A stretch of DNA of 64,000 bases from Candidatus Zixiibacteriota bacterium. Its GTDB lineage: Bacteria; Zixibacteria; MSB-5A5; GN15; FEB-12. The DNA is taken from positions 96,039-160,038 of the forward strand of contig JANQPI010000020.1 in NCBI GenBank assembly GCA_028289585.1. The letters are read 5' to 3'. Both the position numbers and the translations under genes were made by a program. Below the pieces are notes generated by a model. That model was not told where the DNA came from and did no database searches. It saw nothing but the letters and a program-made list of their open reading frames with translations. Of the stretch, positions 2,609 to 28,680 are shown in pieces. Positions within the stretch are counted from its first letter, which is position 1; every line of letters begins with the position of its first letter.

Positions 2609-2786
2609 TCACGCTATGGTGACTCATTTACCCCGGTCGCACGCCGACAGTTCCCGGTATCGGTACTCTTCGTTTGACCAAGGTCGATGGCACTCATTGA
2701 CGTCGATAACAATGCATCCTATCATGCCCGCGGCAACTGAAACCGCTCACCACAGGCGATCGCCGGACGATCGCAGGGAGGTGCTC

Positions 2787-9098: not shown

Positions 9099-9106
9099 AA
9101 AACGTT

Positions 9107-10240: not shown

Positions 10241-10301
10241 TGCAATCGTACCCTAACTCTATCCACCGCAACACATACCGGCCCCGCCGGTTCCACCGAC
10301 C

Positions 10302-11468
10302 CTACTCGAGCCATGAGTGAGCGTAATCCCGATCGAGCGTCTTCTGGGCGTTGGTTGTCGGCAAAAGCGGCTGGTACGTATCAATCATGATCGCGTACTC
10401 CTCGGTCTTCTCCTTGCCGACCGAATCTTCGGTCTTGCCCGGTTGCGGACCGTGGGGCATCCCTCCCGGATGCAACGTTATCGATCCGTTCTTCACACCC
10501 TTACGCGACATGAAGTCACCGTCGACGTAGTACAGTACCTCATCCGAATCGATGTTCGAGTGGAAATACGGTGCCGGAATTGCGCCGGGATAGAAATCGT
10601 ACAGACGCGGGACGAAGTTGCAGAGTATGAACTGACCCGTTTTGAAACAGAGATGTACCGGCGGCGGGAGATGAATCCGACCGACTTTCGGATGGTAGCT
10701 CTTGATGTTAAACGCAAACGGATAGAGGAAGCCATCCCAGCCAACGACACCGAACGGATGATGTGGCATGATATGTTCGAAGAAACGCTCACCCGCCTTG
10801 AGAATGACGACAAAGTCACCAGCCTCATCCGACGGTTCCAGATACTCCGGCGCCTTGAAATCGCGCTCGGCATACGGCGCGTCCTCAGTCATCTGACCGT
10901 ATTCATTACGGTAGTTGCGGGGAATTTCGTAGGCGGTCGATGATTCGCAGATCATCAGTTTGTTGTTCGCAGTGTAGTCGTCGAACTTGATCTGATACGT
11001 CACCGCTCGTGGCACGATAATCTGGTCGCCCGGCTCGAACCGAATCTTGCCGAACTCCGAAAGCATCTCCCCCTCGCCGTGGTGGATGAAAACGTACTCC
11101 GCACCGTAGGCGTTGCGGAAGAATTCGTCGGTGTCCTTGTTCACGTGTGCGGTGTAGATCTTGCAGTGATCGTTGTAGAGGAAGAGATTCCGCGACCGAA
11201 TGAAATCCCCCGGCGTCTGCAGGTCATCGGTGAAGAAATGATGATATAACACCGGTGCTTCCGGCCAGGAGACATCCTGAGTCATTTCCGGAAGGTGCCG
11301 CACGGATTTGACCGCGGTTGGCAAGTTGTAGTGATACTTGTTCGAATAGACACCCGAGAAACCCTTCGACGAAAACAACTCCTCGCGATAGAGCGACTTG
11401 CCGTCTTTCTTGAAGAACGTTGTGTGTTTGACGCGGGGAATATCCCCGACACTATGGTAAAATGGCAT
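10302..11468 (-). CDS. hmgA: homogentisate 1,2-dioxygenase
   Basis: 388 aa, typical HGD length and sequence pattern (cupin fold); follows hppD. Confidence 0.9.
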   Translation of the reverse strand: MPFYHSVGDIPRVKHTTFFKKDGKSLYREELFSSKGFSGVYSNKYHYNLPTAVKSVRHLPEMTQDVSWPEAPVLYHHFFTDDLQTPGDFIRSRNLFLYNDHCKIYTAHVNKDTDEFFRNAYGAEYVFIHHGEGEMLSEFGKIRFEPGDQIIVPRAVTYQIKFDDYTANNKLMICESSTAYEIPRNYRNEYGQMTEDAPYAERDFKAPEYLEPSDEAGDFVVILKAGERFFEHIMPHHPFGVVGWDGFLYPFAFNIKSYHPKVGRIHLPPPVHLCFKTGQFILCNFVPRLYDFYPGAIPAPYFHSNIDSDEVLYYVDGDFMSRKGVKNGSITLHPGGMPHGPQPGKTEDSVGKEKTEEYAIMIDTYQPLLPTTNAQKTLDRDYAHSWLE

Positions 11469-11547
11469 CGTTGCCTCGCATACTCAGTTGTGAATTCACT
11501 CTCACTTCCCGTCGGCTGGTAACCAAAAGGAGGGGACGACGTCCCCC

Positions 11548-12714
11548 CTAGCAGGGAGGCATGATTTCCGTTGGATCGCGATCGAGATTGCCGCGCAGTT
11601 TCTGATCGAGTTCGATCGATTCGAACAGCGACTGGAAGTTCCCCTTGCCGAAGCCCTGGGAGTTTCCGTGGCGCTGAATGAACTCGAAGAAGAACGTCGG
11701 CCGGTCACAAATCGGCTTGGTAAAGAGCTGTAACAGATAACCGTCGGACTCCTTGTCGCACAGAATGCCGAGCCGCTGGAGGTCATCGATGTTTTCGTTG
11801 ATCTGCAACTCGCCTGCCTGCTCACGTTCGCGCAACTTGTCGTAGTAGGTGTCCGGGATAGCGAGGAACTCACAGCCGTTCTTACGGAGGGCATCGATCG
11901 TTGCAATGATATCGGCGGTCTGGATCGCGATATGCTGTACGCCAGAACCATAGTATTGCTCGATGTATTCTTCGATCTGGGATTTTTTGAGTCCCTCGAA
12001 CGGTTCGTTGATCGGGTTACGGATTTTGGAGTCTTTGGTGCGAACGACCTTGGAGAGCAACGCCGAGTACTGGGTGCCGATGTCGCCTGCCTTAAAGTCG
12101 ACAAACGTCTCCATGTCCATCGCCTTGTTGAAATAGCTCGCCCAGAGATTCATCTCATTCTCGCGGACGTTGCCGACAATATGGTCGATTCCGAGAATCC
12201 CCGTTTCGTGATGGTCGAGTTGAATACTCTGCACCGGGGCGCAGAAGTCGGGACCAAATATCCCCTTGTAGTGGTCGCGGTTGACATACACGAGTTCGGT
12301 GTCGTCGTACAGACGAATCGCGGCCTCGGTGATGTGTCCCTTTTCCGGATGCCCATCTTCTTCGATCCGTTCCGGGCGGCGTACCATGACGGCACCGTTC
12401 TGTGTCGCGTACGTGAATGCGGCGTCGACATCGTCGACCTCAACCGACCAGCGCTTGACACCGTCGCCATGACGTTGAATCCAGCCGAGCACATCGTAGC
12501 AGTGCGGCTGCAACGCGCCGGTGACGAGCAGTTTGAAATTGTTCTTCTGCAGGTAGTAGCTGCACTTGTCGCGCACTCCCGTTTCGGCGCCGCGGTAGCC
12601 GACAATCTCCATGCCGAGCGCTTTGGCGAACCAGTAGGCGGTCGTTTTCGCCGACCCGACATAGAACTCGACATAGTCATAGCCACGGATTCCCATGATT
12701 CCGCTATCCGACAT
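11548..12714 (-). CDS. hppD: 4-hydroxyphenylpyruvate dioxygenase
   Basis: 388 aa, two VOC/glyoxalase-like modules, conserved HPPD C-terminal region; RBS-like AGGAG upstream. Confidence 0.9.
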   Translation of the reverse strand: MSDSGIMGIRGYDYVEFYVGSAKTTAYWFAKALGMEIVGYRGAETGVRDKCSYYLQKNNFKLLVTGALQPHCYDVLGWIQRHGDGVKRWSVEVDDVDAAFTYATQNGAVMVRRPERIEEDGHPEKGHITEAAIRLYDDTELVYVNRDHYKGIFGPDFCAPVQSIQLDHHETGILGIDHIVGNVRENEMNLWASYFNKAMDMETFVDFKAGDIGTQYSALLSKVVRTKDSKIRNPINEPFEGLKKSQIEEYIEQYYGSGVQHIAIQTADIIATIDALRKNGCEFLAIPDTYYDKLREREQAGELQINENIDDLQRLGILCDKESDGYLLQLFTKPICDRPTFFFEFIQRHGNSQGFGKGNFQSLFESIELDQKLRGNLDRDPTEIMPPC

Positions 12715-12910
12715 ATCTTGCTCCTCTCGAACTCCGATCGCTGGTAGTCGTCATTGATGGTCGTAACCCGATGCGGCGCTAATGGTTCCAGCGCGCCGGG
12801 ACGACCGGTGGACGGGCCGCCTGTCCGCGTCTACCGTCCTAAGCTGATAATATAGAGTGTGGATTCCCGCCCGGCAAGGTGTGCGCGGAGCGGCAGCCGG
12901 CGCAGGGCGC

Positions 12911-13414
12911 TTAGGAACTGCCGAGCACCGACCAGACGAAGATACCGATCATCACCGCCGCGATCGTCACTTTCCCGACTCCCGCAACAAAGACGCCGAT
13001 AAACGACCCGAGTCCCGCGCGCAACGCGTTCGTGCGATTCCTGCCGAGTGTTGCCTCACCGACGACCGCACCGGCGAATGACCCGACGATAAACGTCACG
13101 ATCCCGAAGACCGGGAAGATAATCCCGGCAATCATGCCAACCACCGCGCCAATCGCCCCGGCCCATCCCCCACCGAAACGCTTCGCGCCGAACGCCGCAC
13201 CAAGATAGTCGAGCGCCCACGCGATCAGCATCAGCCCCGCCAGCCAGGCGACCGCCTCTCCGGAGATGTAGCTCCAGTCAGTCAGCCAGCCGAAGAGTAA
13301 CGCCGGGATGAAGATGAGCACCGTCCCCGGGATAACGGGCAGAACGGTCCCCGCGACTCCGACCAACATGACCAGTAGGGCGAGGATGAAGAGGGTAATT
13401 TCGATTCCGGTCAT
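12911..13414 (-). CDS. DUF456-family small integral membrane protein
   Basis: Gly/Ala-rich 4-TM protein; start chosen at MTGIEITLF... Confidence 0.55.
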   Translation of the reverse strand: MTGIEITLFILALLVMLVGVAGTVLPVIPGTVLIFIPALLFGWLTDWSYISGEAVAWLAGLMLIAWALDYLGAAFGAKRFGGGWAGAIGAVVGMIAGIIFPVFGIVTFIVGSFAGAVVGEATLGRNRTNALRAGLGSFIGVFVAGVGKVTIAAVMIGIFVWSVLGSS

Positions 13415-13552
13415 ACAGACAGAATACGCTCTGAAGTTGCAAGTATTCAAGTCCCCATCAGATCGTGCAAAAAAACCTGAAGCATCTGGTTGCGGCTACG
13501 TACACCAGAGTCAAACAGAACGCGTAATGCGGGCCAAAGACCGGAGGGCAGG

Positions 13553-14398
13553 ATGAGAACGTTGATTCGAGTAGTGCTGATCTTTATCGGGACGTTTATC
13601 GTCGTTGCCGGGTGGGGATGGTTCAATATCTGGCGCTCGCCGAAGTTTGCGTCCGATGCCCTGACCCTGACCGCCTGCCAAGAGAATCCGGCAATCCTGA
13701 GCATGGAACAGTACGGCGCCGTTGGTAGCCACGCTCGCCCGTATGTCGTGGAACGACCTGACCTGGTGCTGTTCGGCGCCGAGCATACGAAAGACCCCGA
13801 TGACCCCCAGATTGCCAGAATCGAATCGGCGTGGGCGCAACTCGACCCGACGGTAGCACTTGTCGAGGGTCGACTCGGCTTCCTGATTCCGTACGTCATG
13901 AATCCGGTACCGACATTCGGCGAGAGCGGCTATGTCGCCAAACTGGCCCGGAGCGACGGTGCGGCGATCTATTCCTGGGAGCTCCCCAAGTCGGAGTTGA
14001 TTCTTGAACTCGTTAAGGTATACCCGCCCGAGCAGGTCGCACTCAGTCAGGTTCTGAGTCCGTATTTCAGCAACTACCGGTTCGGCAAGCCGGACGATCC
14101 GGAAGCGTTCGTCGCGCAATTCCTCAACCGCGCACACTACCCCGGACTGGAGAACACGATCGGCTCAATAGATGATATCGACCAAATCTGGCAGCAGGAT
14201 TTCGCGGATGTCGCCGACTGGCGGGAAACGTCAGATCAATGGGGACTGCCTGGCTACCTAGGCGAAATCGCGGCGTCGGCCAACATGATCCGCAATCAGC
14301 ATTTGGCCTGTGTGATTGATGGGTTAGTGGCGAACGGCGAGCGAGTGTTTGTGATCGCCGGTTCCAGCCATGCCGTCTGCCTCGACCCGGCGCTGTGA
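13553..14398 (+). CDS. membrane-anchored hypothetical protein, possible TraB/GumN family
   Basis: N-terminal TM helix; LFGAEH..D near N-terminus and VIAGSSHAV near C-terminus resemble TraB/GumN signature motifs; weak. Confidence 0.4.
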   Translation: MRTLIRVVLIFIGTFIVVAGWGWFNIWRSPKFASDALTLTACQENPAILSMEQYGAVGSHARPYVVERPDLVLFGAEHTKDPDDPQIARIESAWAQLDPTVALVEGRLGFLIPYVMNPVPTFGESGYVAKLARSDGAAIYSWELPKSELILELVKVYPPEQVALSQVLSPYFSNYRFGKPDDPEAFVAQFLNRAHYPGLENTIGSIDDIDQIWQQDFADVADWRETSDQWGLPGYLGEIAASANMIRNQHLACVIDGLVANGERVFVIAGSSHAVCLDPAL

Positions 14399-14408
14399 TG
14401 CGACAACC

Positions 14409-14748
14409 CAAGTGACCTGGGTGCCCCACCTTTCAGGTGGGAATCTTTGCGGCAGCCGAAGGACGACGAGTCATCCCGGCCCCTCTGTCATCCCGGCCCC
14501 TCTGTCATCCCGGCCCCTCTGTCATCCCGGCGAAAGCCGGGATCCAGTCTTTGTCGGGTGGGGCAGGTGAGGACACCTGCCGCCCACAGGAGAAAGTGAC
14601 GAATCGCGCTGTTCCGAGATTGTCATAGTGGCGGAGACGCGGCATGGGTTGAGAGTAGCAGACAGCTTTTGCAAGTGGCAATCACATTGGGGGAGCCGAA
14701 TTTGAGAATCCCACCCTAAAGGGTGGGCCACCCCGGCCTGATGACCAC
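14409..14748. repeat. MITE-like palindromic repeat element, copy 1 (about 340 bp): terminal inverted repeats GTGCCCCACCTTTCAGGTGGGAATC / GAGAATCCCACCCTAAAGGGTGGGCCACC, three perfect 17-bp tandem units GTCATCCCGGCCCCTCT plus hairpins CCCGGCGAAAGCCGGG and GGCAGGTGAGGACACCTGCC
   Basis: Seen directly; second copy at 15507-15850. Confidence 0.7.
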
Positions 14749-14755
14749 AGAGGTG

Positions 14756-15361
14756 CTATCGCGATGAATCGGAGAGAATGGAATCTCTTAGCCAAGCTCG
14801 ATGTATGCTATCTGCAATTCGAATGCTATCCCTGATTCTCTTACGGTGCTGCTCAACTCCGAGGTATCGCACACTACCCCTGTAAAACCGAACAGAGTCT
14901 CCCTCGCATGCCCATGATACTTGAAACAGATCTCCCCCACAGTAATCAGTGGTCACAAGGAAGGAAACCTCCGCAGTGTCGTTAGCGTCTGGCGCAACCC
15001 GAATCGGTATCCTAACGTCCACGGAGCCTCGAGCCTCTACCTCAAATTCGACCAGAGAGTTCGAAGGCTGCGCCAAGTCATTACTGCCCATCGGTCCCAA
15101 CACACACGTCATTGGCCCATGGCAAACAGAGGTGAATGTGACTATTAGATCGAAGGACTGTCCAGCAAGGGGGCCGACACCGTGTTTAGATCGGAAAGCA
15201 GAGGGCCACAGAGCGTTGGCACGAGCGCTACCGCGTAACGTATCTCCACGCGTTTTGGCTTCCCAATCCTTTGTCGGCGGCTGTGAGCCGATGCCGACGA
15301 AGATAGTCACCAACACTACCAACAATCTCAAGAAGTCCGTAGCTACCGTCATAGTCCCCAT
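14756..15361 (-). CDS. hypothetical secreted/membrane protein; diverged third paralog of the N-terminal domain of the 1098-aa protease (shared EFEVE...DYCxG segment)
   Basis: 201-aa ORF in low-GC island; local similarity to ORFs 20049-21053 and 16756-20052 N-termini; preceded (on its own strand) by the 91-bp repeat. Confidence 0.4.
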   Translation of the reverse strand: MGTMTVATDFLRLLVVLVTIFVGIGSQPPTKDWEAKTRGDTLRGSARANALWPSAFRSKHGVGPLAGQSFDLIVTFTSVCHGPMTCVLGPMGSNDLAQPSNSLVEFEVEARGSVDVRIPIRVAPDANDTAEVSFLVTTDYCGGDLFQVSWACEGDSVRFYRGSVRYLGVEQHRKRIRDSIRIADSIHRAWLRDSILSDSSR

Positions 15362-15420
15362 GGATCCTGTAGATTTGATTCACGTCATCGTGCGCGTGTG
15401 TAAGAAACGACTGCACAGGG

Positions 15421-15511
15421 AATCCGTCCAATGCCGATTTCAGCTCCCCCGATTGAACCTACCATTTGTTCTTAATGTACTATATACTAGCCAATCGGGC
15501 GGCTGATCGCC
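15421..15511. repeat. 91-bp direct repeat copy A (AATCCGTCCAATGCCGATTTCAGCTCCCCCGATTGAACCTACCATTTGTTCTTAATGTACTATATACTAGCCAATCGGGCGGCTGATCGCC)
   Basis: About 95% identical to 21094-21184; AT-rich core TTAATGTACTATATACT could be a promoter for the downstream minus-strand gene. Confidence 0.75.
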
Positions 15512-15850
15512 TGGGTGCCCCACCTTTCAGGTGGGAATCTTTGCGGCAGCCGAAGGACGACGAGTCATCCCGGCATCCCTGTCATCCCGGTCCTTCTGTC
15601 ATCCCGGCGCCTCTGTCATCCCGGCGCAGGCCGGGATCCAGTCTTTGTCGCATGGGGCAGGTGAGGACACCTGCCGCCCACAGGAATACGCTAAAAAACT
15701 CTACTCCTTAACAGTCTCCTGATTGGTGAAGCTTACGGGGCAATATAACCCCTAAATCGAGGTTTTATCTGGACCAGTTTTTGGGCGAAAGGTCACCTTC
15801 GCTAGCCATCTGGTAATGGACGGGTGGCCCACCCTGGGCTTGATACTTAG
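15507..15850. repeat. MITE-like palindromic repeat element, copy 2 (degenerate 17-bp units GTCATCCCGGCATCCCT / GTCATCCCGGTCCTTCT / GTCATCCCGGCGCCTCT, same hairpins; degenerate right end near GGGTGGCCCACCC)
   Basis: Direct comparison with copy 1; right boundary approximate. Confidence 0.6.
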
Positions 15851-15883
15851 CCTGCCTCAATGCCAGAGAATAGCCCCGTTTAA

Positions 15884-16708
15884 CTACTGACAGGTGGGCA
15901 GTGGAGAAAACGTGATGAACAGATGGTCCTGCAGAGCAGTTAGATCCGACAACCCTACGATACCGTCGGGTGAACCGTCGCAGTTCGCTTCCGCCGGACA
16001 AATCAAGGGACTAAGAGAGATAAAAAGGTGATCGACCAACGCACTGAAGTCCGCTAAGGACACTATGTCGAGTGGGTCGCCATCAACATTGCCAACGTCC
16101 GCGACACAACAACTACCTTGATCTTGTACGTGTAGGGCACCTGCCCAGACCGGATACCAAAGCGTAGTCGGTGTCCCACCCGCTGCCGCATAAACAACAT
16201 TTGGGAAGAGAGCGTGGGATGTATCCATTACGAAGGTGTTTCCAGCCGTCCAATGCTCAACGGTAAAGTGGAATGTCACCAGCTCTTGAGACTGGGGAGC
16301 AGCGGTCAAACCCGGCAAACTAATTAGCTGACCGGCAAACATGCAATGCTTCAGACTGTTAGATGAATCGACGTTGTTATTGTACATCGATGTGAACAGA
16401 TAGAAATTGAATGCACTGTCAACTGCTACAGGAACAACGGAACTATCCAGTCTGACTCCATCCAGATTCCAAACAAACTGTGCAGCTGCCATCTTGAGAA
16501 ACGATGAGTCGAGCTTGTACATGAACGACACAGCGAAGCTGGAGTCACCAACACTCAGATTAAGTGGATCAGACAACCTGAGTTTCATCGAATCAGGAAC
16601 ACCCGGGTCTAGGATGTCAAAAGCCGGTGCACTCGGAGCCGACAACAACGCCGTGCAATACAAGACCAAAGCAAAGCAACGGACTCCCCGAAAAGAATTG
16701 CATTTCAT
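15884..16708 (-). CDS. secreted protein with signal peptide and C-terminal tandem dockerin-like (EF-hand-loop) module; probably co-transcribed with the upstream metalloprotease
   Basis: 274 aa; N-terminal hydrophobic signal; C-terminus ...CCVADVGNVDGDPLDIVSLADFSALVDHLFISLSPLICPAEANCDGSPDGIVGLSDLTALQDHLFITFSPLPTCQ; 47-bp gap to protease gene. Confidence 0.6.
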   Translation of the reverse strand: MKCNSFRGVRCFALVLYCTALLSAPSAPAFDILDPGVPDSMKLRLSDPLNLSVGDSSFAVSFMYKLDSSFLKMAAAQFVWNLDGVRLDSSVVPVAVDSAFNFYLFTSMYNNNVDSSNSLKHCMFAGQLISLPGLTAAPQSQELVTFHFTVEHWTAGNTFVMDTSHALFPNVVYAAAGGTPTTLWYPVWAGALHVQDQGSCCVADVGNVDGDPLDIVSLADFSALVDHLFISLSPLICPAEANCDGSPDGIVGLSDLTALQDHLFITFSPLPTCQ

Positions 16709-16755
16709 GGCATAACCTCCTCCTCTAAAATACTAATGACCAAACTCCATCGCAA

Positions 16756-19700
16756 TCACGGACAGATCTCCAATAGACTGAAGCTGATATAGAGATGATC
16801 AATTATCGCTAATACGTCAGCCTGAGAAACGCCCGGCTCACAACTCCCTCCGACAGTTCGAAGGTTAGCACTCTCAGGGCAATGAATCGCAATAAAGTCA
16901 ATAAATAGATGATTGATGTATATGCTCAAGTCAGATTGAGTGACGTCGTTGTCACCGAATCCATATATATCACCCGCAGTTCGATCTGAAAAACGGCACG
17001 GACCGGCCTTACAGGTCAAGTGGCCATTCTCGGAAGCAACGTCAAACTTGCCGAGATTTGTTGACAAGTTCCAATCCTCTAGGAACTCAGACATACTATC
17101 CGGCTGTGTGATAACTAAGAACTGAAGTATGTCGGTAAGCGAGTGTTGAAGTGTATCCTTGATACCATCCGGATTCGGAGTAAAGACCCCGGTCCAGTTG
17201 CCGCTTTCAAAAGGACTATAATTGTCATCCTCGCCTGCGTCATAGAGATCCCAAATCAAGCAGCCCGCTGAAGCCTCAAACAAGCAATGATCCGCACATC
17301 CGGATTGACCAGAGAAATCGACACCATTCTCTAGTCTGTATTGACGACCCGTCTCAAGGTCAAGAACCGCGGCAAACGTATACTCATAGTTCCAGTTGTA
17401 GCCAAGGGAACCCAAGCCTGTACCAAGGGTATCGCGTAGAGCGCCTTGGAAGAACTCGGCGAATCCCTCGGACGAAGCCTTAACCGGGTCCGAATTCGAA
17501 GAGTCGCACCAAGAATGAGAGGAGATTAGACTTGTCCGGTCGTCAAAGAAACGGTAGTGGTCGTGAAAAGCGTGGGCATACTCGTGCAAAATAGCCTCTG
17601 GGTCCCGCAAATCGTATAGGTAGTCAACTTTCCAACTACTTATGCTAATGTGACCGTCGAGGTAGCCAGTCGTGTCAAAAGAACTTGTCGACATTGTTAC
17701 CCGAGGCGGTGGATCGATTCCGACTCGTTCGGTGAGTTGTTCAGCAGCGAAGCGTAGCACATCGAGAGCATAAAACACATCGGAATTGATCGAATCCGGA
17801 GGCAGGATGAAGTCGACAGTGTAGTTCCCTCCAGGTAAGTCCATTGACAGTACTGAATCTCGAAAGTACCCGTCGGAAAAATTGACCGATGTAACGGAGC
17901 AAACAGGCGTCACCGCAACGAGACGGATATAAGGATCGATCGCACCACTCCCGATTTCTCCATCTTCATTAGTGAATTCGAAAGTGAATTTACCCAGGGA
18001 ATCAGTAACCGTCGTGGCTATTAGGTCATCAGGATTTCCAAAAATAAAATCCTCGTCCCAGGCTTCCACGCGAGCTCCAATGATAGGTCGATCACCTTCG
18101 TTGTTTGGTCGTCTTCGATAATAGGTGGCAGTCCCACGTATAACGACCTTTCGGTTGTAGAACTGGTACTCTCGAGTGGCAGTATTATTCGTCTGGTCAG
18201 GCTCGCCAAAGCCACCAAGACTGTTCAGAATTACAACGATATTGCCAAGAAAACTCGCCTGTTCAATCGGTTTAAATTCGACATCTTGGAAAAAGAGTAG
18301 CTGATTAGTTTGCGGTTGAATCGATTCAACAAAAAGATATGTCGATTGGGATACCTGATTATTGACTTCTATCGAAAATGCTCCGGATTCACCCAGCCCG
18401 TCATTCCTTACGCCGATGCAAACGCGATTCGGCTCACCCATGTACAACGTGTCATCAACCAAGCAACCGAGATCTTGAGAGACCGAAAAGACGTCCGGTA
18501 GGAAGGGATCCTGGTAGAACTCTAGGTCAAAGTTTGGCTTCCCGCGAACTTCCAAGTCGTCAATATAGACTCCTAATTTGTCATTTCCATCGTCATAGCC
18601 CGAACGGAAAGTAAAAATTAGAAAGACAGAATCCGGTAGAGTATCTATAGGCGTAGAGCCTTGACGAAACGTCTTGAGCGGAAATGAAATCGACTGCCAA
18701 CCGTTTGACGTTCCTCCGTAGGTGAGGAATCCGTTGACTAGGCTATTAGTGTTAAGGGAATCTCGGGAGTGAGCATATTGTACTACAAAAAAATTGTTTG
18801 AGAAGACCTGTTCAAAATCAAACCAGCACTGGAAAATGCAGTTTGCACTACGGAAGCCAGATAAATCAATTCCGATAGTATCGGCAAGAGTCGCGATCAT
18901 CCCTGGCGGGTAGGCTGGCGCGGGGCTATCCGCCGTGTCACTTGCACCTGCACACCAAATCGACGGTACAAAAGCACTCCCATGATAAAAGCTCGCGCCC
19001 CAGTGGGCCACGCCGTTGCCGGGATCGGAGTCGTAGCTTTGCCATCTATCCGATAAACCAAAATTGAATTCATCCTTGAAAATGATCGAGTCACTCGTGT
19101 TCACTTCTCTTCGCGGAGAAGAATCGCTAGTCGTGTCCTGCTGCTCACCAGGGGCGGTGATTCGGGAGTTCACAAATTCAGCAAACCACATCAATAGCGA
19201 ATCAATCTGAGCCGCGGCTGTTGATGTCGCTGTCTTTGAAACATACGCCCAGTAGTGATCGGGTGCGTACGGTACGAGTGAGTCGACTCGATCTCGCACA
19301 GCAGCAACCACCTCAGGTGTGAAAATAGCCATTCTCCGCCGAGCGGTCTCGGGAGTTTGATCGGAGTGTGGTGTGTTCACTGAGGGGTCGCGGATAGGCT
19401 TGAGGTCGTTTGCTAATCTGACCGAGTCAATCATCTCGCTGACTCTGCGATTGTGCTCGAGAATCTCCTCAAGCGGAATACGACCTTGCATAGTATCGGA
19501 GGCCCAGTATTGGCTCGCCATTTCACGCAATCTCGCGTTCAGCGACCATCTCTCCAGAACTTCGACAACATTCTGGCCATTATTGAACGCATCATGTGGT
19601 TTATTGCTGACTGTCACTGAATCGACATAGTCTGCAATGTAAATATGAAAGAAATTGAATAATCCGTTACAGTAGTCGACACTGACAGGAAATGCGGTGT

Positions 19701-20052
19701 AGCGCTCAGGCGGATACTGCAATTCGACCTCAAACTCAATCTGCCGCTGCCCATTGAGATCCAACTCCAACTCATTGGGAACAGGACGTGGCATTTCTTG
19801 AGGGCTAGAAACCCCTATTCTCACAGTCGGACAGTTAAGGTACTCATCCCGGGGCATCGCCGTTACACGCACCCTAACAGGCTGTCCGCGGATAACCCCG
19901 CCGACAACTTCGAGACGAGTTTCGATTGAGACATTCGGCAGCTTGCGGGGCGTAGCATCGCTTTGTGATACGAGAATTATTAGCGAGAAAAGAACGAAAA
20001 TCGTAAGTCGCTGTGGAGCAATCATCACACACCCCCAGTTTGGATGACTCAT
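16756..20052 (-). CDS. large secreted zinc metalloprotease (HExxH: LHEYAHAFH) with N-terminal paralogous domain, central beta-rich domains and C-terminal dockerin-like module
   Basis: 1098 aa; signal-like N-terminus; HEYAH motif; C-terminal ...DNDVTQSDLSIYINHLFIDF...GVSQADVLAIIDHLYISFSLLEICP; low-GC composition. Confidence 0.7.
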   Translation of the reverse strand: MSHPNWGCVMIAPQRLTIFVLFSLIILVSQSDATPRKLPNVSIETRLEVVGGVIRGQPVRVRVTAMPRDEYLNCPTVRIGVSSPQEMPRPVPNELELDLNGQRQIEFEVELQYPPERYTAFPVSVDYCNGLFNFFHIYIADYVDSVTVSNKPHDAFNNGQNVVEVLERWSLNARLREMASQYWASDTMQGRIPLEEILEHNRRVSEMIDSVRLANDLKPIRDPSVNTPHSDQTPETARRRMAIFTPEVVAAVRDRVDSLVPYAPDHYWAYVSKTATSTAAAQIDSLLMWFAEFVNSRITAPGEQQDTTSDSSPRREVNTSDSIIFKDEFNFGLSDRWQSYDSDPGNGVAHWGASFYHGSAFVPSIWCAGASDTADSPAPAYPPGMIATLADTIGIDLSGFRSANCIFQCWFDFEQVFSNNFFVVQYAHSRDSLNTNSLVNGFLTYGGTSNGWQSISFPLKTFRQGSTPIDTLPDSVFLIFTFRSGYDDGNDKLGVYIDDLEVRGKPNFDLEFYQDPFLPDVFSVSQDLGCLVDDTLYMGEPNRVCIGVRNDGLGESGAFSIEVNNQVSQSTYLFVESIQPQTNQLLFFQDVEFKPIEQASFLGNIVVILNSLGGFGEPDQTNNTATREYQFYNRKVVIRGTATYYRRRPNNEGDRPIIGARVEAWDEDFIFGNPDDLIATTVTDSLGKFTFEFTNEDGEIGSGAIDPYIRLVAVTPVCSVTSVNFSDGYFRDSVLSMDLPGGNYTVDFILPPDSINSDVFYALDVLRFAAEQLTERVGIDPPPRVTMSTSSFDTTGYLDGHISISSWKVDYLYDLRDPEAILHEYAHAFHDHYRFFDDRTSLISSHSWCDSSNSDPVKASSEGFAEFFQGALRDTLGTGLGSLGYNWNYEYTFAAVLDLETGRQYRLENGVDFSGQSGCADHCLFEASAGCLIWDLYDAGEDDNYSPFESGNWTGVFTPNPDGIKDTLQHSLTDILQFLVITQPDSMSEFLEDWNLSTNLGKFDVASENGHLTCKAGPCRFSDRTAGDIYGFGDNDVTQSDLSIYINHLFIDFIAIHCPESANLRTVGGSCEPGVSQADVLAIIDHLYISFSLLEICP

Positions 20053-20104
20053 ACTACCAATGACAGTATAGAGTATGACGTACCGCGCACGCAGTCACCA
20101 AACT
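20032..20104. repeat. 73-bp segment (5' UTR plus first 7 codons of the protease gene) near-identical to 21023-21094
   Basis: Exact match except a 1-bp indel; tandem duplication signature. Confidence 0.85.
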
Positions 20105-21053
20105 CGATTTCAGGAGTCTCCGGTTTCTTTCGATTTGATTCAACGTCTTTCTTCTGAAGATGCCGCGTCCTCACGTACTCTTCGAACCACTCCAAGAGCT
20201 CGTCGACTCGCTGTTTGGCCGATGCAGTCGCCGTCTTCGAAACATATGCCCAGTAATGATGTGGCGCATACGAAACCAATGAATCCACTCTAGATCGTAC
20301 TGCATCAACTTCCTCGGGATTTAGCAGGAACATTGCCTGTCTAACCGAACTCTGGCTGCTGTCGGACAGGCTAGTCTCCAAAGTCGTTGCGAAAATCGGG
20401 CCAAGCCCCATCAACGTTCGGATCGAGTCGATCTGTCTACGAACCTCATCGTTATGTTGGCCAATATCGTCTATCCGAAAGCTTGGACCGAGAGTATCTG
20501 GAGACAAGAAGCGGCTCTCTAACTGCTTCAGTTGCTGTTCGAGGCGCCGCCTTTCTAACGTCGCAGGAACACTCGTCCCGCTTCTAAAACCGATGTCGGG
20601 TACATCCGTGACAACTACAGAATCAACGTAGTCGACGATAAAAAACTCATAGAAATTGAGATATCGATCACAGAATTTGAAGCTGACCGAGTACGCCAAG
20701 TATAGCTCGGGGAGAAAGTTGACTTCGAACTCTACATCTATCCTCCCCGATGACTGCCGATCTACCTGCTGCTCGGTCGGACTCGGTTGGGGCATATTCC
20801 GAGCCACGTGCAAATCGACTAAGACCGTTTCGCAGGTGTCGAACTCGGGCCGAGGAATCGCGGTAACGCGTAGGCTAATTGGATGCCCTCGAACTATTTC
20901 GCCAACAACTTCTACATTGGCATCGATCGATACGTCGGGTAGAGCGCGGGACCGGGCATCGCTCTTTGAAACAGCGGTGAGGGTCAGTAAAAGAACAAAT
21001 GCCAAGACTCGGCATGAGTAGATCATCACACACCCCCAGTTTGGATGACTCAT
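20049..21053 (-). CDS. paralog of the N-terminal domain of the 1098-aa metalloprotease (stand-alone, about 334 aa), stop overlaps protease start (ATGA)
   Basis: Shares MSHPNWGCVMI start and similar following region (...LP[ND]VSI...VEVVG..RG.P...RVTA.PR... EFEV...); start chosen at the conserved MSHPNW methionine. Confidence 0.55.
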   Translation of the reverse strand: MSHPNWGCVMIYSCRVLAFVLLLTLTAVSKSDARSRALPDVSIDANVEVVGEIVRGHPISLRVTAIPRPEFDTCETVLVDLHVARNMPQPSPTEQQVDRQSSGRIDVEFEVNFLPELYLAYSVSFKFCDRYLNFYEFFIVDYVDSVVVTDVPDIGFRSGTSVPATLERRRLEQQLKQLESRFLSPDTLGPSFRIDDIGQHNDEVRRQIDSIRTLMGLGPIFATTLETSLSDSSQSSVRQAMFLLNPEEVDAVRSRVDSLVSYAPHHYWAYVSKTATASAKQRVDELLEWFEEYVRTRHLQKKDVESNRKKPETPEIEFGDCVRGTSYSILSLVV

Positions 21054-21094
21054 ACTACCAATGACAGTATAGAGTATGACGTACCGCGCACGCA
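21023..21094. repeat. second copy of the 73-bp 5' UTR/start duplication
   Basis: Direct sequence comparison. Confidence 0.85.
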
Positions 21095-21184
21095 ATCCGT
21101 CCAAAGCCGATTTCAGCTCCCTCGATTGAACCTACCATTTGCTCTTAATGTACTATATACTAATCAATCGGGCGGCTGATCGCC
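21094..21184. repeat. 91-bp direct repeat copy B; a further degenerate copy lies at about 20098-20130 inside the 3' end of the paralog ORF
   Basis: About 95% identity with 15421-15511. Confidence 0.75.
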
Positions 21185-21223
21185 CACCAACAATGCCGAC
21201 ACCGCTAGCCACAAGGGGTTACG

Positions 21224-23011
21224 ATGCCGACAGTTGCCTCTACCGAAACGCCGGTTGACTTTACCAGCAACCCGCAGGTCCGCGCCCTCCCCAACTACCT
21301 TCGACAGTTCATTGTCGAACAGAACTACGACGCCTACCACCCGGTCGACCACGCCGTCTGGCGTTACATCATGCGTCAGAACTGCCATTTCCTGCGCGAG
21401 AACGCCCACAAAGTCTATTTCAAGGGGCTGCTCGAAACGGGGATCGACCTCGACAAGATTCCGTCGATCGCCGAAATGAATGACATCCTGGGCAAGATCG
21501 GCTGGGGCGCGGTGGCCGTCGACGGGTTCATCCCCCCGGCGGCGTTCATGGAGTACCAGGCGTACAAAGTGCTCGTCATCGCCGCCGACATGCGGCAACT
21601 GCATCATATCGACTACACCCCCGCGCCGGATATTGTCCACGAGGCGGCCGGGCATGCGCCGATCATTGTCGACGAGGAATACTCGAACTACCTGCAACGC
21701 TTCGGCGAAATCGGTGCCCTGGCGATGTACTCGAAGCGAGATTACGAGCTCTACGAGGCGATTCGCAAGCTGTCGATTCTCAAAGAAACGCCTGGCGCCG
21801 ATGAAAACGAAATCGACGCCACAGAAAAGCAGGTCAAATGGCTACAGGAAAATCTCGGGGAACCGTCGGAAATCGCCCGCCTGCAACGTCTGCACTGGTG
21901 GACAGTCGAATACGGCCTGATCGGCACGCTCGACAAGGCCAAGATCTACGGTGCGGGATTGCTCTCATCGATCGGCGAGTCGGTCAAATGCCTCGAACCG
22001 AATGTCAAGAAGTTGCCGTACACGCTCGCTGCGGCTGACTACGCCTTCGATATCACCGAGATGCAACCGCAACTTTTTGTCACCCCCGACTTCACACATC
22101 TGCACAACGTTCTCGAAGAATTCGCCGACACAATGGCACTCCGTCGCGGCGGCGCCTACGGCGTCAAGATGGCGATCGACACCGAGGCAACCAACACCGC
22201 CGAATACTCAAGCGGTTTACAGGTGTCAGGAATTTTCAGCGATCTAAAGACCGATGCCAATGGCGACGTGATCTTTATCAAGACATCGGGTGCGACCACC
22301 CTCGCCCATCAGCGGACGTGTCTCGACGGTCACGGTCCCGAGTATCATGCCGACGGCTTCTCCTCGCCGGTTGGTAAGTTTAAGAACGTCCCGCGCGATC
22401 CGGGTGATCTCGACGATTCCGCGCTCGAAATGATGGGCCTGCGTTTCGGTCAGCCGGGCAAACTCGAATTCGAGTCCGGCATCACGGTAGAGGGAACGCT
22501 CGAACGGGCCGTCCGCAAAGACGACAAGCTCCTCTTACTCGTCTGGTCGAACTGTACGGTCACCTACGGCGGCGAAACACTGTTCCGTCCGGAATGGGGA
22601 ACCTACGACATGGCGGTCGGTGCGACAATTACGTCGGTCTTCTGCGGTGCTGCTGACAAAGATGCTCACCACGAAATCGCTCCGGTCTCGCGCACGCGAA
22701 CGATCAAAGTCCACTACACCGATAAAGAGCGCGCTCGCCAGAAGCTCTACGGTGAGGTGCGGAAGATACGCGACGGCCAGGGGTCGACCGAGGCCCTTCC
22801 GGATATCTGGACCAAGGTCACCACCGAGCACCCCGACGACTGGTTGCTGTCGACCGAGATTCTAGAACTCGTCGAGCATCTCAAAATCTATCCAGATCTC
22901 AACAAACGGATTCGCGCCTATCTCGCCACCAAGGCAGAGGAGGATGCGATCACGCGCAAGTTGATTGAGGACGGTCTCAGTCTCTCGTTCCGCATCACTG
23001 CCCGCGACTAG
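21224..23011 (+). CDS. phhA: long-form aromatic amino acid hydroxylase (phenylalanine 4-monooxygenase) with a roughly 300-aa C-terminal extension of unknown function
   Basis: Iron-binding/pterin region PDIVHEAAGHAPIIVDEEYSNYLQRFGEIG matches the PAH/TH/TPH catalytic signature; total 595 aa. Confidence 0.8.
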   Translation: MPTVASTETPVDFTSNPQVRALPNYLRQFIVEQNYDAYHPVDHAVWRYIMRQNCHFLRENAHKVYFKGLLETGIDLDKIPSIAEMNDILGKIGWGAVAVDGFIPPAAFMEYQAYKVLVIAADMRQLHHIDYTPAPDIVHEAAGHAPIIVDEEYSNYLQRFGEIGALAMYSKRDYELYEAIRKLSILKETPGADENEIDATEKQVKWLQENLGEPSEIARLQRLHWWTVEYGLIGTLDKAKIYGAGLLSSIGESVKCLEPNVKKLPYTLAAADYAFDITEMQPQLFVTPDFTHLHNVLEEFADTMALRRGGAYGVKMAIDTEATNTAEYSSGLQVSGIFSDLKTDANGDVIFIKTSGATTLAHQRTCLDGHGPEYHADGFSSPVGKFKNVPRDPGDLDDSALEMMGLRFGQPGKLEFESGITVEGTLERAVRKDDKLLLLVWSNCTVTYGGETLFRPEWGTYDMAVGATITSVFCGAADKDAHHEIAPVSRTRTIKVHYTDKERARQKLYGEVRKIRDGQGSTEALPDIWTKVTTEHPDDWLLSTEILELVEHLKIYPDLNKRIRAYLATKAEEDAITRKLIEDGLSLSFRITARD

Positions 23012-25101: not shown

Positions 25102-28100
25102 GTGACCAAGCTTTTCACGCTGCTCTGCGGCTTTTGTCTGCTACTCTCTCCGGCGATGGCCGAGACAGTCTTTGACGAACTCACGGCCGACCAAGAAATC
25201 GCGGCCTTCCAGGTTGAAGCGGTTTACGAGACCGATGCCGGAGCTGGTATGGGTGCACGATTCCGTCACGTCCCAACCGGCTTCGTACTCGACCTCCTGC
25301 GTATCCAGTCGGTTCCGCAGGCGTTCATGTGGGTAAACTCACCGCCGTTCTCTGACGGTGGCGAGCCCCACACGCTCGAGCATCTGCTTCTCGGTAAGGG
25401 GAATCGCGGCCGCTACGTTGCGTCACTTGAAGACATGGCGCTCGGATCGTCGTCGGCCTACACCGAACAACTACGCACCTGCTATCACTTCCACACTAAC
25501 GCGGGAACCGAAACGTTCTTCCTGCTTTTCCGCGAGAAACTTGATGCGATGCTGAACCCGACTTTCACCGATGAAGAGATTCGTCGGGAAGTGATGAATT
25601 ATGGCATCAAGATCGATCCGACGACCGGTGATCGCACCCTGGAGGAAAAGGGGACGGTCTATAACGAAATGGTCAGCTCGTTTGAGCGCCCGTGGGGCAA
25701 CCTGTGGTACGAAATGCGTCAGAATATCTTCGGCGCCGATCACGAATACTCGCGGTCGGCCGGTGGCACGCCTGAAGCGCTGCGCCAACTGCCGCCGGAA
25801 GCGATCCGACGCTTTCACGACTCGACCCACCAGCTCTGGAACATGGGGGCTGTGGCAGCCCTTCCTAACGAGATTGCTGTCGACGACGCGCTGCAGTTGT
25901 TTTCGGATATTCTCGCCGCAGTGGATCCGGATGCCGGTCCCGGTGAGGATGCCGCCACCGCCTATGATCGCCTTCCTCCGTTCCGCTCAGCCGAGCCGGG
26001 AGCGATTCTGCAGACCGCCTTCAAGTCAGCGAACCCGCAGGAGCCCGGCTTGATGTTCCTTGCCTGGCCGCCCGTGAATCGACTTGAGAACAACGATTGG
26101 ATGATGGCCGATCTTCTCATGGAACTCGTGGCCACCGGCCAGACGTCGAACCTCCACAAGAAGCTGATCGACAGTCGCGAGCGCGTCACCGACATCGGTG
26201 CCACCTCGATTTTTGGATGGGTCGACGACGGTCCGGGTCAGTCGTTTATGATCGGTATCTCCGATGTCCGGCCGTCGGCTACGTCACCTGCAATGATCGA
26301 TTCCATACGCGGCTTGATTGTCAACGAATTCGCCCGCATTGCCTCGTGGTCCGATGATGATCCAGACCTCGCAGCGTTCAATGAGCGCGCGATGACCCGT
26401 CTGATAGCCAACGAACGAGCCAATCGGATGTTTCTCAATCAGCCTCCGCGCTGGGGGTACCGAGGGACCGGATCGGCCTGGCTCGACCTGCTACAACGAT
26501 TGCATCGGACCGGAGAGTTTCGCCGATCACTCACGCGTAACGCGGAGGTGGCGTTCGCTCGTGCCCAATTGGAAACCGAGGGTAACATCTGGAAAGCGTA
26601 CATCGACGGTTGGCAGCTCGGACAGCAGCTCCCCTACGCCGGTGCGACACAACCCGACCCGGGAATCATTCAGGCGACGCAGGACGCCACGGCGGCGCGA
26701 CTTGGTGCCAAGTTGGCCACCCTGCGGGAGACCTACAACGCCACAACCGATGACGAGGCAATAGCGGCGTTTGCTGCCGACTACGACGCTCAGACAGCGA
26801 TCCTCGATTCGATCGCCGCGGAAAACACCGTACCAAGCTTCATCGACAACCCACCCCTTACGATCGATCCAACGCTCGCCTATCGCATCGAGTCGCTCCC
26901 CGGCGGCGGCGATCTGGTCGTGTCGACCTTCGACAACATCTCCAGCGCGACGATCGGATTAGCAATGGACCTCTCGGTGACGCCGGAATCCGAACTACTC
27001 TATGTTGCCGCGCTACCGACACTGCTTCGTCAAACCGGAGTGATCCGCGACGATCAACCGATCCCGTTTGACCAGTTCGATGAATCGGTACGCCGGGAGA
27101 TTCGCTCTCTCGATGCCTACGTCACGACCAATCACCGGAGTGAGCGTGCCGAACTTGTGGTCCGCGCCTCCGGTTCGGAGATCGCAGAGAACCGAACAGC
27201 AATCGGATGGCTTGAGACGATGCTGCTGGCCCCGGACCTTCGGATTGAAAACCTCCCTCGCATCATCGATGCAATCGATCGCACGCTGTCGGGACATCGG
27301 ACTCGGATGCAGGGCTCCGAAGAATCGTGGGTGACCGAGCCTGCCAACGCGTACTGGCGGCAGGATAATCCCCTGCTGCTCGCGACATCGTCGTTCATGA
27401 CCGAAGCCCATCTGTTGCAGCGATTCCGCTGGCAGTTGCGAGCGGCGCCGGACCAGGCGACTGGCGACGCAACATCGATGTTCATGCAGCGCCTGAATGA
27501 TCTGGGCACTCTCGGTGGCGATCGCGCCACGGCCTCGGCGTTAGTCAAATCGATTGCGGACAATGCTGCCGACCAATCGTCGCACTCCCTCGCCGTTGAT
27601 TACCTTGCGCTCCCCGAAGCCGCCCGAGAGCTCGTTCATGAGGCAGCCGTTGATCTCGTCGCGAATCTTCCGGGGATTCCGGATGAGTCGTTCGCCGACG
27701 ACTGGGCACTGCTGGTTACGCAGATGATGGCTGACCTGCGGACCTCACCCGCAACTGCACTCGCCAACGCTGACAACGTGCTCAACCGACTCCGCAATCA
27801 GGCGGCGGTACGTGGGTTCGCGATCACAAACGCGACCGAACAATCGGCCTTGATCGAACGCGTCAGTTCGATCGTTGCGAAGCTCGATGACACACCGATC
27901 GAGCGCGTGAAGTACACACGCCGAGCGCGCGTCGACGACCGTATTCAGCAACGTTTGGATGATCGGACCGAGCCGCTGCTGGTCGGCTTGGTGAACAACA
28001 ACACGAGTTCGGGCGTGCACATTCACACCGCCGACTGTGCGTCATTTTTCGACAGTGATACGTCGCTCCTGCTCAATTTCCTCGCTGCTCGCCTTTACGG

Positions 28101-28680
28101 CGGTGGGGGCGCACATTCGATGTTCATGCGGACGTGGGGTGCCGGGCTGGCCTATTCCAATGGTCTGCGCAGCAACGAGGTAAATGGCCGACTGATCTAT
28201 TATGCCGAACGCTGTCCCGACCTCGCACAGACGATTTCATTCGTTACCGACGTATTGAAAAATGCCCCCACGGATCCGGCACTCACCGACTACGCAGTAT
28301 CGCAGGCATTCGCCGTGATGCGATCGGGAGATGATTTCGCCCGTCGTGGCGAGGCAATGGCAGCCTATCTGGCCGACGGTTTGACTGACGAGGTCGTCTC
28401 GCGATTCCGTTCAGGGATTCTCGAACTGCGTTCAATCGACGATCTCGCAACTGTCCTCTTTGATCGAATGGACGAGGTGTACGGAACGGTACTGCCGGGT
28501 TACGGTCCGGCCCTCACGAGCAACCGGGAGACACACAACGCTCGGTTTTTCGTAATTGGTCCGGATGCTCAACTGGATGCCTACACCGAGTATCTCAAGA
28601 CTGTCGAGGGCAATGCGGCAAGCGTTACAAAGCTCTATCCCCGCGACTTCTGGCTGACCGACGATGGACGCATGAACTGA
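25102..28680 (+). CDS. large secreted M16-family (pitrilysin/insulinase-like) zinc metalloprotease, tandem M16 halves
   Basis: 1192 aa; signal peptide MTKLFTLLCGFCLLLSPAMA; inverted zinc motif HTLEHLLLGKG (HxxEH); GTG start. Confidence 0.7.
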   Translation: MTKLFTLLCGFCLLLSPAMAETVFDELTADQEIAAFQVEAVYETDAGAGMGARFRHVPTGFVLDLLRIQSVPQAFMWVNSPPFSDGGEPHTLEHLLLGKGNRGRYVASLEDMALGSSSAYTEQLRTCYHFHTNAGTETFFLLFREKLDAMLNPTFTDEEIRREVMNYGIKIDPTTGDRTLEEKGTVYNEMVSSFERPWGNLWYEMRQNIFGADHEYSRSAGGTPEALRQLPPEAIRRFHDSTHQLWNMGAVAALPNEIAVDDALQLFSDILAAVDPDAGPGEDAATAYDRLPPFRSAEPGAILQTAFKSANPQEPGLMFLAWPPVNRLENNDWMMADLLMELVATGQTSNLHKKLIDSRERVTDIGATSIFGWVDDGPGQSFMIGISDVRPSATSPAMIDSIRGLIVNEFARIASWSDDDPDLAAFNERAMTRLIANERANRMFLNQPPRWGYRGTGSAWLDLLQRLHRTGEFRRSLTRNAEVAFARAQLETEGNIWKAYIDGWQLGQQLPYAGATQPDPGIIQATQDATAARLGAKLATLRETYNATTDDEAIAAFAADYDAQTAILDSIAAENTVPSFIDNPPLTIDPTLAYRIESLPGGGDLVVSTFDNISSATIGLAMDLSVTPESELLYVAALPTLLRQTGVIRDDQPIPFDQFDESVRREIRSLDAYVTTNHRSERAELVVRASGSEIAENRTAIGWLETMLLAPDLRIENLPRIIDAIDRTLSGHRTRMQGSEESWVTEPANAYWRQDNPLLLATSSFMTEAHLLQRFRWQLRAAPDQATGDATSMFMQRLNDLGTLGGDRATASALVKSIADNAADQSSHSLAVDYLALPEAARELVHEAAVDLVANLPGIPDESFADDWALLVTQMMADLRTSPATALANADNVLNRLRNQAAVRGFAITNATEQSALIERVSSIVAKLDDTPIERVKYTRRARVDDRIQQRLDDRTEPLLVGLVNNNTSSGVHIHTADCASFFDSDTSLLLNFLAARLYGGGGAHSMFMRTWGAGLAYSNGLRSNEVNGRLIYYAERCPDLAQTISFVTDVLKNAPTDPALTDYAVSQAFAVMRSGDDFARRGEAMAAYLADGLTDEVVSRFRSGILELRSIDDLATVLFDRMDEVYGTVLPGYGPALTSNRETHNARFFVIGPDAQLDAYTEYLKTVEGNAASVTKLYPRDFWLTDDGRMN

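Follow-up and report, generated by a model that had tools for sequence, protein, structure and literature searches.

A near-identical leader block shared by a metallopeptidase-like gene and a stand-alone paralog of its N-terminal module in a Zixibacteria genome

How can two neighboring genes share an identical stretch of 73 nucleotides (nt) at their starts when their coding sequences have diverged to synonymous saturation? The question is raised by genes A and B in a 64,000-nt stretch of DNA from Candidatus Zixiibacteriota bacterium (GenBank assembly GCA_028289585.1, contig JANQPI010000020.1). We refer to this whole stretch as the window and use its positions throughout. Gene B (20052..16756) encodes 1098 amino acids (aa) with a metallopeptidase-like HExxH motif, and gene A (21053..20049; 334 aa), directly upstream, is a stand-alone paralog of the N-terminal module (N-module) of gene B. 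Genes C (16708..15884; 274 aa) and D (15361..14756; 201 aa) follow, and all four genes lie on the minus strand. An original prediction for this locus had ascribed gene A to a tandem duplication of the promoter and N-terminal domain of a protease.

Gene A is an intact, separate gene upstream of the full-length gene B. In pairwise alignment, its product and residues 1-297 of gene B (the N-module, 19162-20052, minus strand) are 44% identical without a single gap (E-value 3e-85). The two N-domains are thus related far beyond their first 11 residues, and the paralogy proposed for the open reading frame (ORF) at 20049-21053 stands, with the homology spanning residues 1-297 rather than roughly 330. 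By segment, identity is highest in the C-terminal alpha/beta unit (60%) and lowest in the helical hairpin (31%), with 41% in the remainder of the signal peptide and 42% in the beta-sandwich. According to the Nei-Gojobori method, the proportion of synonymous differences (pS) is 0.76, which is saturated, the proportion of nonsynonymous differences (pN) is 0.37 and the nonsynonymous distance (dN) is 0.51; third positions are 37% identical. Since synonymous sites are saturated, the duplication is old. Gene A is nevertheless a maintained gene, because pN is lower than pS and because its reading frame has remained open across 323 diverged codons, an outcome with a chance probability of about 2e-7.

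A tandem segmental duplication of the upstream region and the first 297 codons produced gene A. This part of the original prediction was borne out by the constant offset of 1001 nt between the copies and by collinear homology that includes the upstream DNA. The C-terminal tail of gene A (aa 298-334; 20049..20160, minus strand) has no homology to gene B from residue 298 on. Its final ~21 codons (20113..20049) are a translated copy of the duplicated upstream and leader DNA, and its 5' part (20114-20160) carries faint remnants of upstream homology. In the AlphaFold2 model of gene A, the predicted local distance difference test score (pLDDT) is 67 overall, about 85 in the sandwich and 31-46 in the tail, which has no secondary structure and is predicted to be disordered. 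Ahead of the tail, a signal peptide and an Ig-like beta-sandwich (aa 44-149) are predicted, along with a helical hairpin, a small beta-alpha-beta-beta unit (236-272) and a long helix.

The same kind of duplication was found a second time, and at least two independent events have released the module as a gene of its own. A contig from another Zixibacteria metagenome-assembled genome (MAG; JAQVRW010000224.1, locus L005) contains a 1261-nt tandem duplication of the upstream region and N-module, in which a 310-aa stand-alone gene (958-1890) is separated by a 300-nt intergenic gap from the full-length gene that begins at 2219. The two copies there are 65% identical, with a synonymous distance (dS) of 0.96 and a dN/dS of 0.28, a ratio indicative of purifying selection on both. 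Elsewhere, stand-alone module genes were found in loci with no peptidase nearby: one (L058, 378-1430) lies beside metabolic genes, and another (L059, 6953-8056) precedes a gene with two modules (8111-9685). Three homologs (P0028, P0046 and P0066) carry two tandem beta-domains in one polypeptide.

Because the duplication is old, an identical block between its copies needs a special cause. A repeat finder identified the block, hereafter L, as a direct minus-strand repeat with copy 1 upstream of gene A (21022..21097) and copy 2 upstream of gene B (20021..20096), identical at 75 of 76 nt with zero indels. BLASTN returned an exact run of 73 nt (20021-20093 and 21022-21094) and a gapped extension of weaker homology to 20113 and 21116 (20021-20113 versus 21022-21116; 93.7% over 95 nt, two gap positions). 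The near-identical 73-bp block reported earlier at both starts is therefore real, although its first pair of coordinates was about 10 nt off and no indel lies inside it; the indel noticed at the time is probably the 2-nt gap upstream of the identical part. Compared at the 1001-nt offset, the coding regions agree at about 55% of DNA positions and the two 30-nt windows that surround the start at 100%. Outside L, the longest identical run between the copies is 9 nt, and 73 matches in a row at p=0.55 have a probability of about 1e-19. The 5' edge of L is not sharp, as homology fades to remnants such as CTGAAATCG that are common to all three upstream regions, those of genes A, B and D. L contains both candidate start codons (in copy 1, ATG1 at 21053-21051 and ATG2 at 21026-24), a TATACT -10-like hexamer, a GGGGG run and the inverted repeat TCATACT-N16-AGTATGA. 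Copy 2 overlaps the final 15 codons and the stop of gene A.

An assembly artefact was ruled out as the source of the repeat. The A/B junction (20097-20160) is unique sequence, and a 4395-nt contig from the independent Logan assembly of run SRR20820731 is identical to window positions 15656-20050. Its end at 20050 is where a k=31 graph is expected to break if a repeat begins at 20021 (k=31 is assumed for Logan), and both ends of the contig fit k=31 unitig stops if 20021-20051 and a stretch of the downstream repeat D1, described below, each have two contexts. Since this independent assembly breaks exactly at the repeat edges, the repeats are present in the reads themselves, given the same assumption on k.

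The position of L relative to the genes depends on which start codon is used. In the family alignment, the signal peptides of homologs begin at the position of ATG2 (21026 in gene A, 20025 in gene B), and from this codon both genes encode canonical signal peptides, MIYSCR-VLAFVLLLTLTAV-SKSDA in A and MIAPQR-LTIFVLFSLIILV-SQSDA in B. A Shine-Dalgarno-like GGGGG lies 6 nt upstream of ATG2 and is suggestive only, the genes of the window being poor in Shine-Dalgarno sequences. ATG2 is thus probably the start of both genes, which would give products of 325 aa (A) and 1089 aa (B). Gene A would then terminate 23 nt ahead of the start of gene B, and L would consist of a 71-nt non-coding leader followed by ATGAT. 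Translational coupling of the two genes had been proposed from their ATGA stop/start overlap at 20052-20049. The overlap is present but involves ATG1, and direct coupling is doubtful because ATG2 is the likelier start.

For the proposal that a promoter was duplicated, a strict sigma-70 scan for -35 and -10 hexamers found no promoter in L or in D2, a second upstream repeat. By eye, TTGCGT-18-TATACT can be read in L and TATAGT in D2, and the sigma-70 consensus may not be that of the host; we infer a promoter or leader function for L. The 11-mer AGTATANAGTA occurs at four sites in the window against 0 expected (15478-15488, 20065-20075, 21066-21076 and 21151-21161), all of them in L and D2, and just two of the four are independent, since L and D2 are repeat copies. 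Its orientation is opposite in L and D2; the two sites ahead of gene A are arranged as an inverted pair, with about 75 nt between them. The 11-mer may represent a regulator site or a -10-like element. A terminator-like hairpin at 21015-20999 lies within the signal-peptide codons of gene A and was attributed to chance, as five such hairpins were found against 6.5 expected.

L is one of three repeats in the region, which reads D2-L-A-L-B-C-D1-D2-D-D1 on the minus strand. The D2 copies, 91% identical over 102 nt, lie upstream of gene A (21083..21184), in the divergent intergenic region shared with a phenylalanine-hydroxylase-like gene at 21224, and upstream of gene D (15410..15511). The D1 copies, 94% identical over 176 nt, lie downstream of gene C (15510..15685, abutting D2) and downstream of gene D (14416..14591). 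D1 has a REP/BIME-like look overall, with two perfect hairpins (GGCAGGTG...CACCTGCC and CCCACCT-GAA-AGGTGGG) and 3.6 tandem copies of the 17-nt unit GCCGGGATGACAGAGGG. A 20-codon ORF start, MPRLRHYDNLGTARFVTFSC (14586-14645, minus strand), runs into D1; it presumably resembles the N-terminus of REP-associated or IS200-like tyrosine transposases, and Pfam gave no hit. The shared upstream DNA forms a patchwork: L is common to genes A and B and D2 to genes A and D, while gene B has only remnants of D2 and the counterpart of L upstream of gene D has diverged.

The explanation that we favor, with a confidence only a little better than even for the whole of it, is an old duplication combined with short-tract gene conversion of the leader. 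An ancient tandem duplication of about 1001 nt would have copied the upstream region together with the first 297 codons of gene B, and the upstream copy would have become gene A, which encodes the N-module independently as a secreted, stand-alone protein. The frame of this gene would run from the module into the duplicated upstream DNA and stop at the TGA that overlaps the first ATG of gene B. Both copies would subsequently have diverged to synonymous saturation under purifying selection, except for a segment of 73-76 nt, the presumed promoter-proximal leader and ribosome-binding region of both genes, whose identity would have been preserved by short-tract conversion, recent or repeated, between the two copies. 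A run of 73 identical bases is sufficiently long for RecA-dependent exchange, and selection for a common expression signal may help to keep the homogenized state. The original prediction had offered gene conversion or selection on the 5' region as alternatives, an apt pair of which conversion appears the better and, judged from the sequence pattern, the most likely mechanism. As expected of a conversion tract, identity is 75/76 in L against about 55% DNA identity and a pS of 0.76 in its flanks. The pairwise patchwork, with L in A/B and D2 in A/D, is likewise what conversion predicts.

Several observations weigh against this explanation. No sister genome or strain was found among GTDB representatives or in a scan of JGI metagenomes with the A/B alignment, and concerted evolution is consequently inseparable from extreme constraint or recent replacement. 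The flanks of L are too diverged to initiate recombination, so that L was either kept continuously or made by one recent event with its edges there. The 3' edge nearly coincides with the start codon and looks functional rather than random, and the strict scan had found no promoter in L. The upstream DNA of the L005 duplication is not specially homogenized, at 71-87% identity throughout and with no perfect block. Finally, L, D1 and D2 were searched for in 64 kb of the genome, and dispersed copies could lie elsewhere.

Purifying selection alone, without recombination, is an unlikely alternative. Under it, L would be a cis-regulatory element, either a promoter with its operator or the leader of an mRNA to which a protein or small RNA binds, and constraint would have held both copies identical ever since they arose. 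L does map onto expression signals, ending 5 nt into the probable coding region; it holds the 7+7-nt inverted repeat and the TATACT hexamer, and AGTATANAGTA is confined to L and D2. However, identity of 75/76 that includes the spacers, next to saturated synonymous sites, is far beyond that of known bacterial promoters and leaders. Constraint would also need to differ for each gene pair, as gene D lacks L and gene B lacks D2. Moreover, the leader forms no stable or unusual RNA fold: the z-scores of its two copies against shuffled sequence are -0.54 and -0.95, and Rfam gave no hit at the gathering threshold and, in L, none at E<=1. A structured-RNA leader or riboswitch was accordingly rejected as unlikely, the folds being no better than shuffled sequence.

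We also consider it improbable, to a similar degree, that L, D2 and D1 are dispersed or mobile repeats (REP- or MITE-like, or promoter-carrying) or the product of recent recombination with foreign DNA, their identity reflecting recent arrival. The setting would suit such elements, with three repeat families at 91-99% identity within 7 kb, in a low-GC island that interrupts a Phe/Tyr catabolism cluster, and with the hairpins and 17-nt tandem repeats of D1 abutting the MPRLRHYDNLGTARFVTFSC fragment. Yet no further copies of L, D1 or D2 were found in the 64-kb window or in 59 other family-related loci, a 22-mer of L matched neither GTDB representative genomes nor viral contigs, and the D2 and D1 cores had no match in viral contigs. 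Around L there are no terminal inverted repeats or target-site duplications, its 5' edge is gradual as expected of old paralogous DNA, and the transposase-like fragment has no Pfam support.

It is quite unlikely that the L blocks constitute a recombination cassette that serves to delete, re-create or amplify gene A or to swap promoters among paralogs, with gene A acting as a secreted decoy, competitor or regulator of the B-C system. Least probable of all, and very remote in our view, is that a single gene with an internally duplicated N-module was split into A and B by a frameshift (an error, pseudogenization or a programmed +1 shift): two-module homologs exist (P0028, P0046 and P0066), the frame of gene B stays open over the 14 codons ahead of ATG1 (up to 20094 in the stop-to-stop ORF) and frameshifts or in-frame stops interrupt family genes at several loci in MAGs, but the gene B copy has an intact signal peptide and a complete leader with start codons that the internal modules of homologs lack, the DNA at the junction was once non-coding and is identical in sequence to what truly lies upstream of gene A, the 1001-nt unit is not a multiple of 3 (nor is it in frame at 1003 nt, without the 2-nt indel), and L005 has the same stand-alone arrangement with a 300-nt gap.

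The module that was duplicated is found at the N-terminus of all complete close homologs of gene B. The N-termini of these homologs are collinear with A and B: the signal peptide is followed by a beta-domain and helices, and then by a small alpha/beta unit. The beta-domain motifs of the homologs, PPNDTS and (T)TGDS, correspond to YPPERYTA and DYVDSV in A/B, and the alpha/beta unit reads 'LDLRDPxDY...GFYRxxxTK' in the homologs and 'LNPEEVDA...HYWAYVSKT' in A/B. Aligned with hhalign, A/B and 11 family N-termini matched over residues 20-150 with a probability of 95% and an E-value of 2e-8.

A profile built from 40 beta-domains of other organisms was scanned over the 516 ORFs of at least 60 aa in the window. 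The profile recovered gene A (E-value 2.3e-8), gene B (5.7e-6) and gene D (1.4e-5), with the next best ORF at 0.32. As a profile from foreign organisms matches only these three, gene D is a true third paralog, highly diverged: pairwise, it matches A and B weakly (E-values 0.001-0.007), and the proteins are about 20% identical. The beta-domain of gene D carries the NDT and GDS family motifs, and gene D ends at the position of the family 'PLTD' motif. The third paralog first proposed at 14756-15361 was thus confirmed by the profile, though not by the motifs cited for it, since EFEVE and DYC(N/G)G do not match in the same register. Neither gene A nor gene D had a match in Pfam, NCBIfam or the PDB.

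Gene B belongs to an uncharacterized family of secreted proteins known almost exclusively from MAGs. Word-indexed protein searches, whether with gene B or with the N-module profile, yielded nothing beyond the proteins of the window itself. HMMER, run exhaustively against 1.84 billion representatives, recovered about 70 distant homologs of gene B residues ~300-1098; for the N-module, these direct searches gave A and B alone. A genome scan of GTDB assigned most of the family to MAGs of Zixibacteria and of other members of the FCB group, and distant relatives to other lineages. In a 22-sequence alignment, H823, E824, H827, H846 and E862 (HExxH ... H ... SEGFA) are invariant, together with a WDxYD motif. 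In gene B, the HExxH motif reads HEYAH (aa 823-827; 17572..17586, minus strand), and SEGFA, which contains E862, lies at 17458-17472 on the same strand. We take SEGFA to resemble the 'NEGFA' motif of M1 peptidases. The earlier designation of gene B as a protease is backed by the invariant HExxH...H...E motif and by no peptidase model of Pfam or NCBIfam above threshold, and the protein had no sequence match in the PDB; 'zinc metallopeptidase-like, with a gluzincin-type motif' appears a fair label.

The predicted domain order of gene B is N-module, MAM- or jelly-roll-like, CARDB-like, transthyretin-like, HExxH catalytic-like domain and dockerin-like C-terminus. Domains recovered in homologs include CARDB, transthyretin-like, a weak InhA-like MAM, and a dockerin or type IX secretion system (T9SS) tail, and matches of the family profile in the PDB were confined to the CARDB, transthyretin (TTR) and dockerin parts. 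Foldseek hits to the AlphaFold2 model of gene B (pLDDT 78) were mostly gingipain cleaved-adhesin and meprin MAM-like jelly rolls. For the dockerin tail, gene B itself has no Pfam hit, Dockerin_1 was hit in 6 of the 22 homologs, and the family profile matched solved dockerins at E-values of 1e-5 to 0.03.

Some members of the family are interrupted. Single in-frame stops occur in family genes of uncultured Ignavibacteriales co-assembly MAGs (L004, 8284-8286; L016, 1911-1913; L024, 3988-3990), and five loci (L009, L012, L013, L017 and L057) are split by a frameshift just past the N-module. A recoded stop codon was ruled out, as the stops are TGA, TAA and TAA. These interrupted and frameshifted loci could be pseudogenes, assembly noise or truly split genes.

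Gene C appears to be the regular partner of gene B. Its homologs lie directly downstream of the peptidase gene in at least three other MAGs (L007, 3738-4454; L019, 9117-9770; L020, 7917-8624), and for this reason B and C form a conserved pair to which gene A is a lineage-specific addition. Gene C has a strong Shine-Dalgarno sequence (GAGGAGGAGG) in an otherwise Shine-Dalgarno-poor window. Its N-domain has no Pfam match, its C-terminus is dockerin-like, and no match to the protein was obtained in Pfam, NCBIfam or the PDB. Gene C may be a cohesin-like or scaffold partner of the HExxH gene.

For the N-module, the original prediction had suggested a propeptide or inhibitor domain of the protease, to be examined by structure prediction. 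The models lend this role no support, as the confident part of the N-module is a generic Ig/Fn3-like sandwich. PepSY and FTP are propeptide domains of M4 and M36 peptidases, and the module has no sequence or fold match to I9, FTP or PepSY. Position and distribution do not support the propeptide or inhibitor role either: about 500 aa of other domains lie between the N-module and the catalytic domain of gene B, and stand-alone copies also occur without a neighboring peptidase. Our best guess is that the module acts autonomously outside the cell, as a binding or scaffold unit of the B-C surface peptidase system rather than as a classical propeptide.

Genes A-D lie in an island of low GC content (48-50% versus about 57% around it; window 14400-21200) placed inside a catabolism cluster, a setting that suggests horizontal acquisition. 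The island interrupts an apparent Phe/Tyr catabolism cluster (context 8064-13450 and 21224-23011), with an FAA hydrolase, an aminotransferase, a homogentisate dioxygenase, a glyoxalase-superfamily (HPPD-like) protein and a DUF456 protein at one flank and a biopterin-dependent hydroxylase at the opposite flank. At the start of the hydroxylase gene (21194-21232, plus strand), ATGCCGACA occurs twice in frame, 30 nt apart, which makes its start codon ambiguous; the upstream region of this gene overlaps D2. Two plus-strand ORFs near the island were also recorded, one of 302 aa at its edge (13490-14398) without a Pfam match and one of 1192 aa (25102-28680) without a Pfam or NCBIfam match. Farther away, a 56-nt direct repeat with 77% identity links 3664-3719 (in ORF 2493-4925) to 5766-5821 (in the methylmalonyl-CoA-mutase gene 4922-7072) and probably reflects paralogous mutase subunits; the Pfam check covered ORF 4922-7072 alone.

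The locus shows a multidomain secreted enzyme gene shedding its autonomous N-terminal module as a separate gene, along with the upstream region and, we infer, its promoter. It also shows a very short stretch at the gene start staying identical while its surroundings diverge to saturation. The newly defined module, an Ig-like sandwich followed by helices and a small alpha/beta unit in an HExxH family widespread in Zixibacteria-like MAGs, is a sensible choice for studying, in structure and function, how uncultured sediment bacteria carry out extracellular proteolysis. Overall, this is a new example of known evolutionary processes, a fairly ordinary case of gene-family evolution in which no new mechanism is demonstrated. 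Were the cassette and the decoy or regulator role true, uncultured bacteria would here have a means, not described before, to tune an extracellular protease.

Comparison with known systems places the locus among several partial counterparts. In its catalytic motif, gene B resembles gluzincins such as the M6 immune inhibitor A-like peptidases, with HExxH and a downstream Glu in an 'EGFA'-type motif, and weak matches in its homologs to the InhA-like MAM domain, to CARDB, to a transthyretin-like domain and to a dockerin tail point the same way. Unlike those proteins, the catalytic region of gene B has no sequence match in Pfam, NCBIfam or the PDB. Stand-alone propeptide-like inhibitors of the I9 type are known for subtilases, for example the Plasmodium SUB1 inhibitor (PMC6993865). 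Gene A resembles them in being a separate protein homologous to the N-terminal, non-catalytic region of an adjacent secreted peptidase, but its module lies about 500 aa (MAM-, CARDB- and TTR-like domains) from the catalytic domain and has copies far from peptidase genes. Tandem paralogs of the lpl lipoprotein-like cluster of Staphylococcus aureus carry a conserved block at which recombination takes place (PMC2568036). Both loci consist of tandem secreted or surface paralogs on a genomic island, with a short conserved block amid diverged coding DNA. The lpl block, however, is central in each ORF, and its rearrangements are documented in many genomes (PMC2568036), whereas L lies in the leader and start region, has two copies only and is accompanied by a second block, D2, shared with a third gene. 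A further counterpart is found in partial 5'-end tandem duplications that yield a truncated paralog with its own promoter, in which the upstream region and the 5' part of a gene are copied, the new ORF ends in duplicated upstream DNA and both copies are kept. The present case differs from these in that the truncated copy is a complete autonomous module, and the same cut point was used independently in L005.

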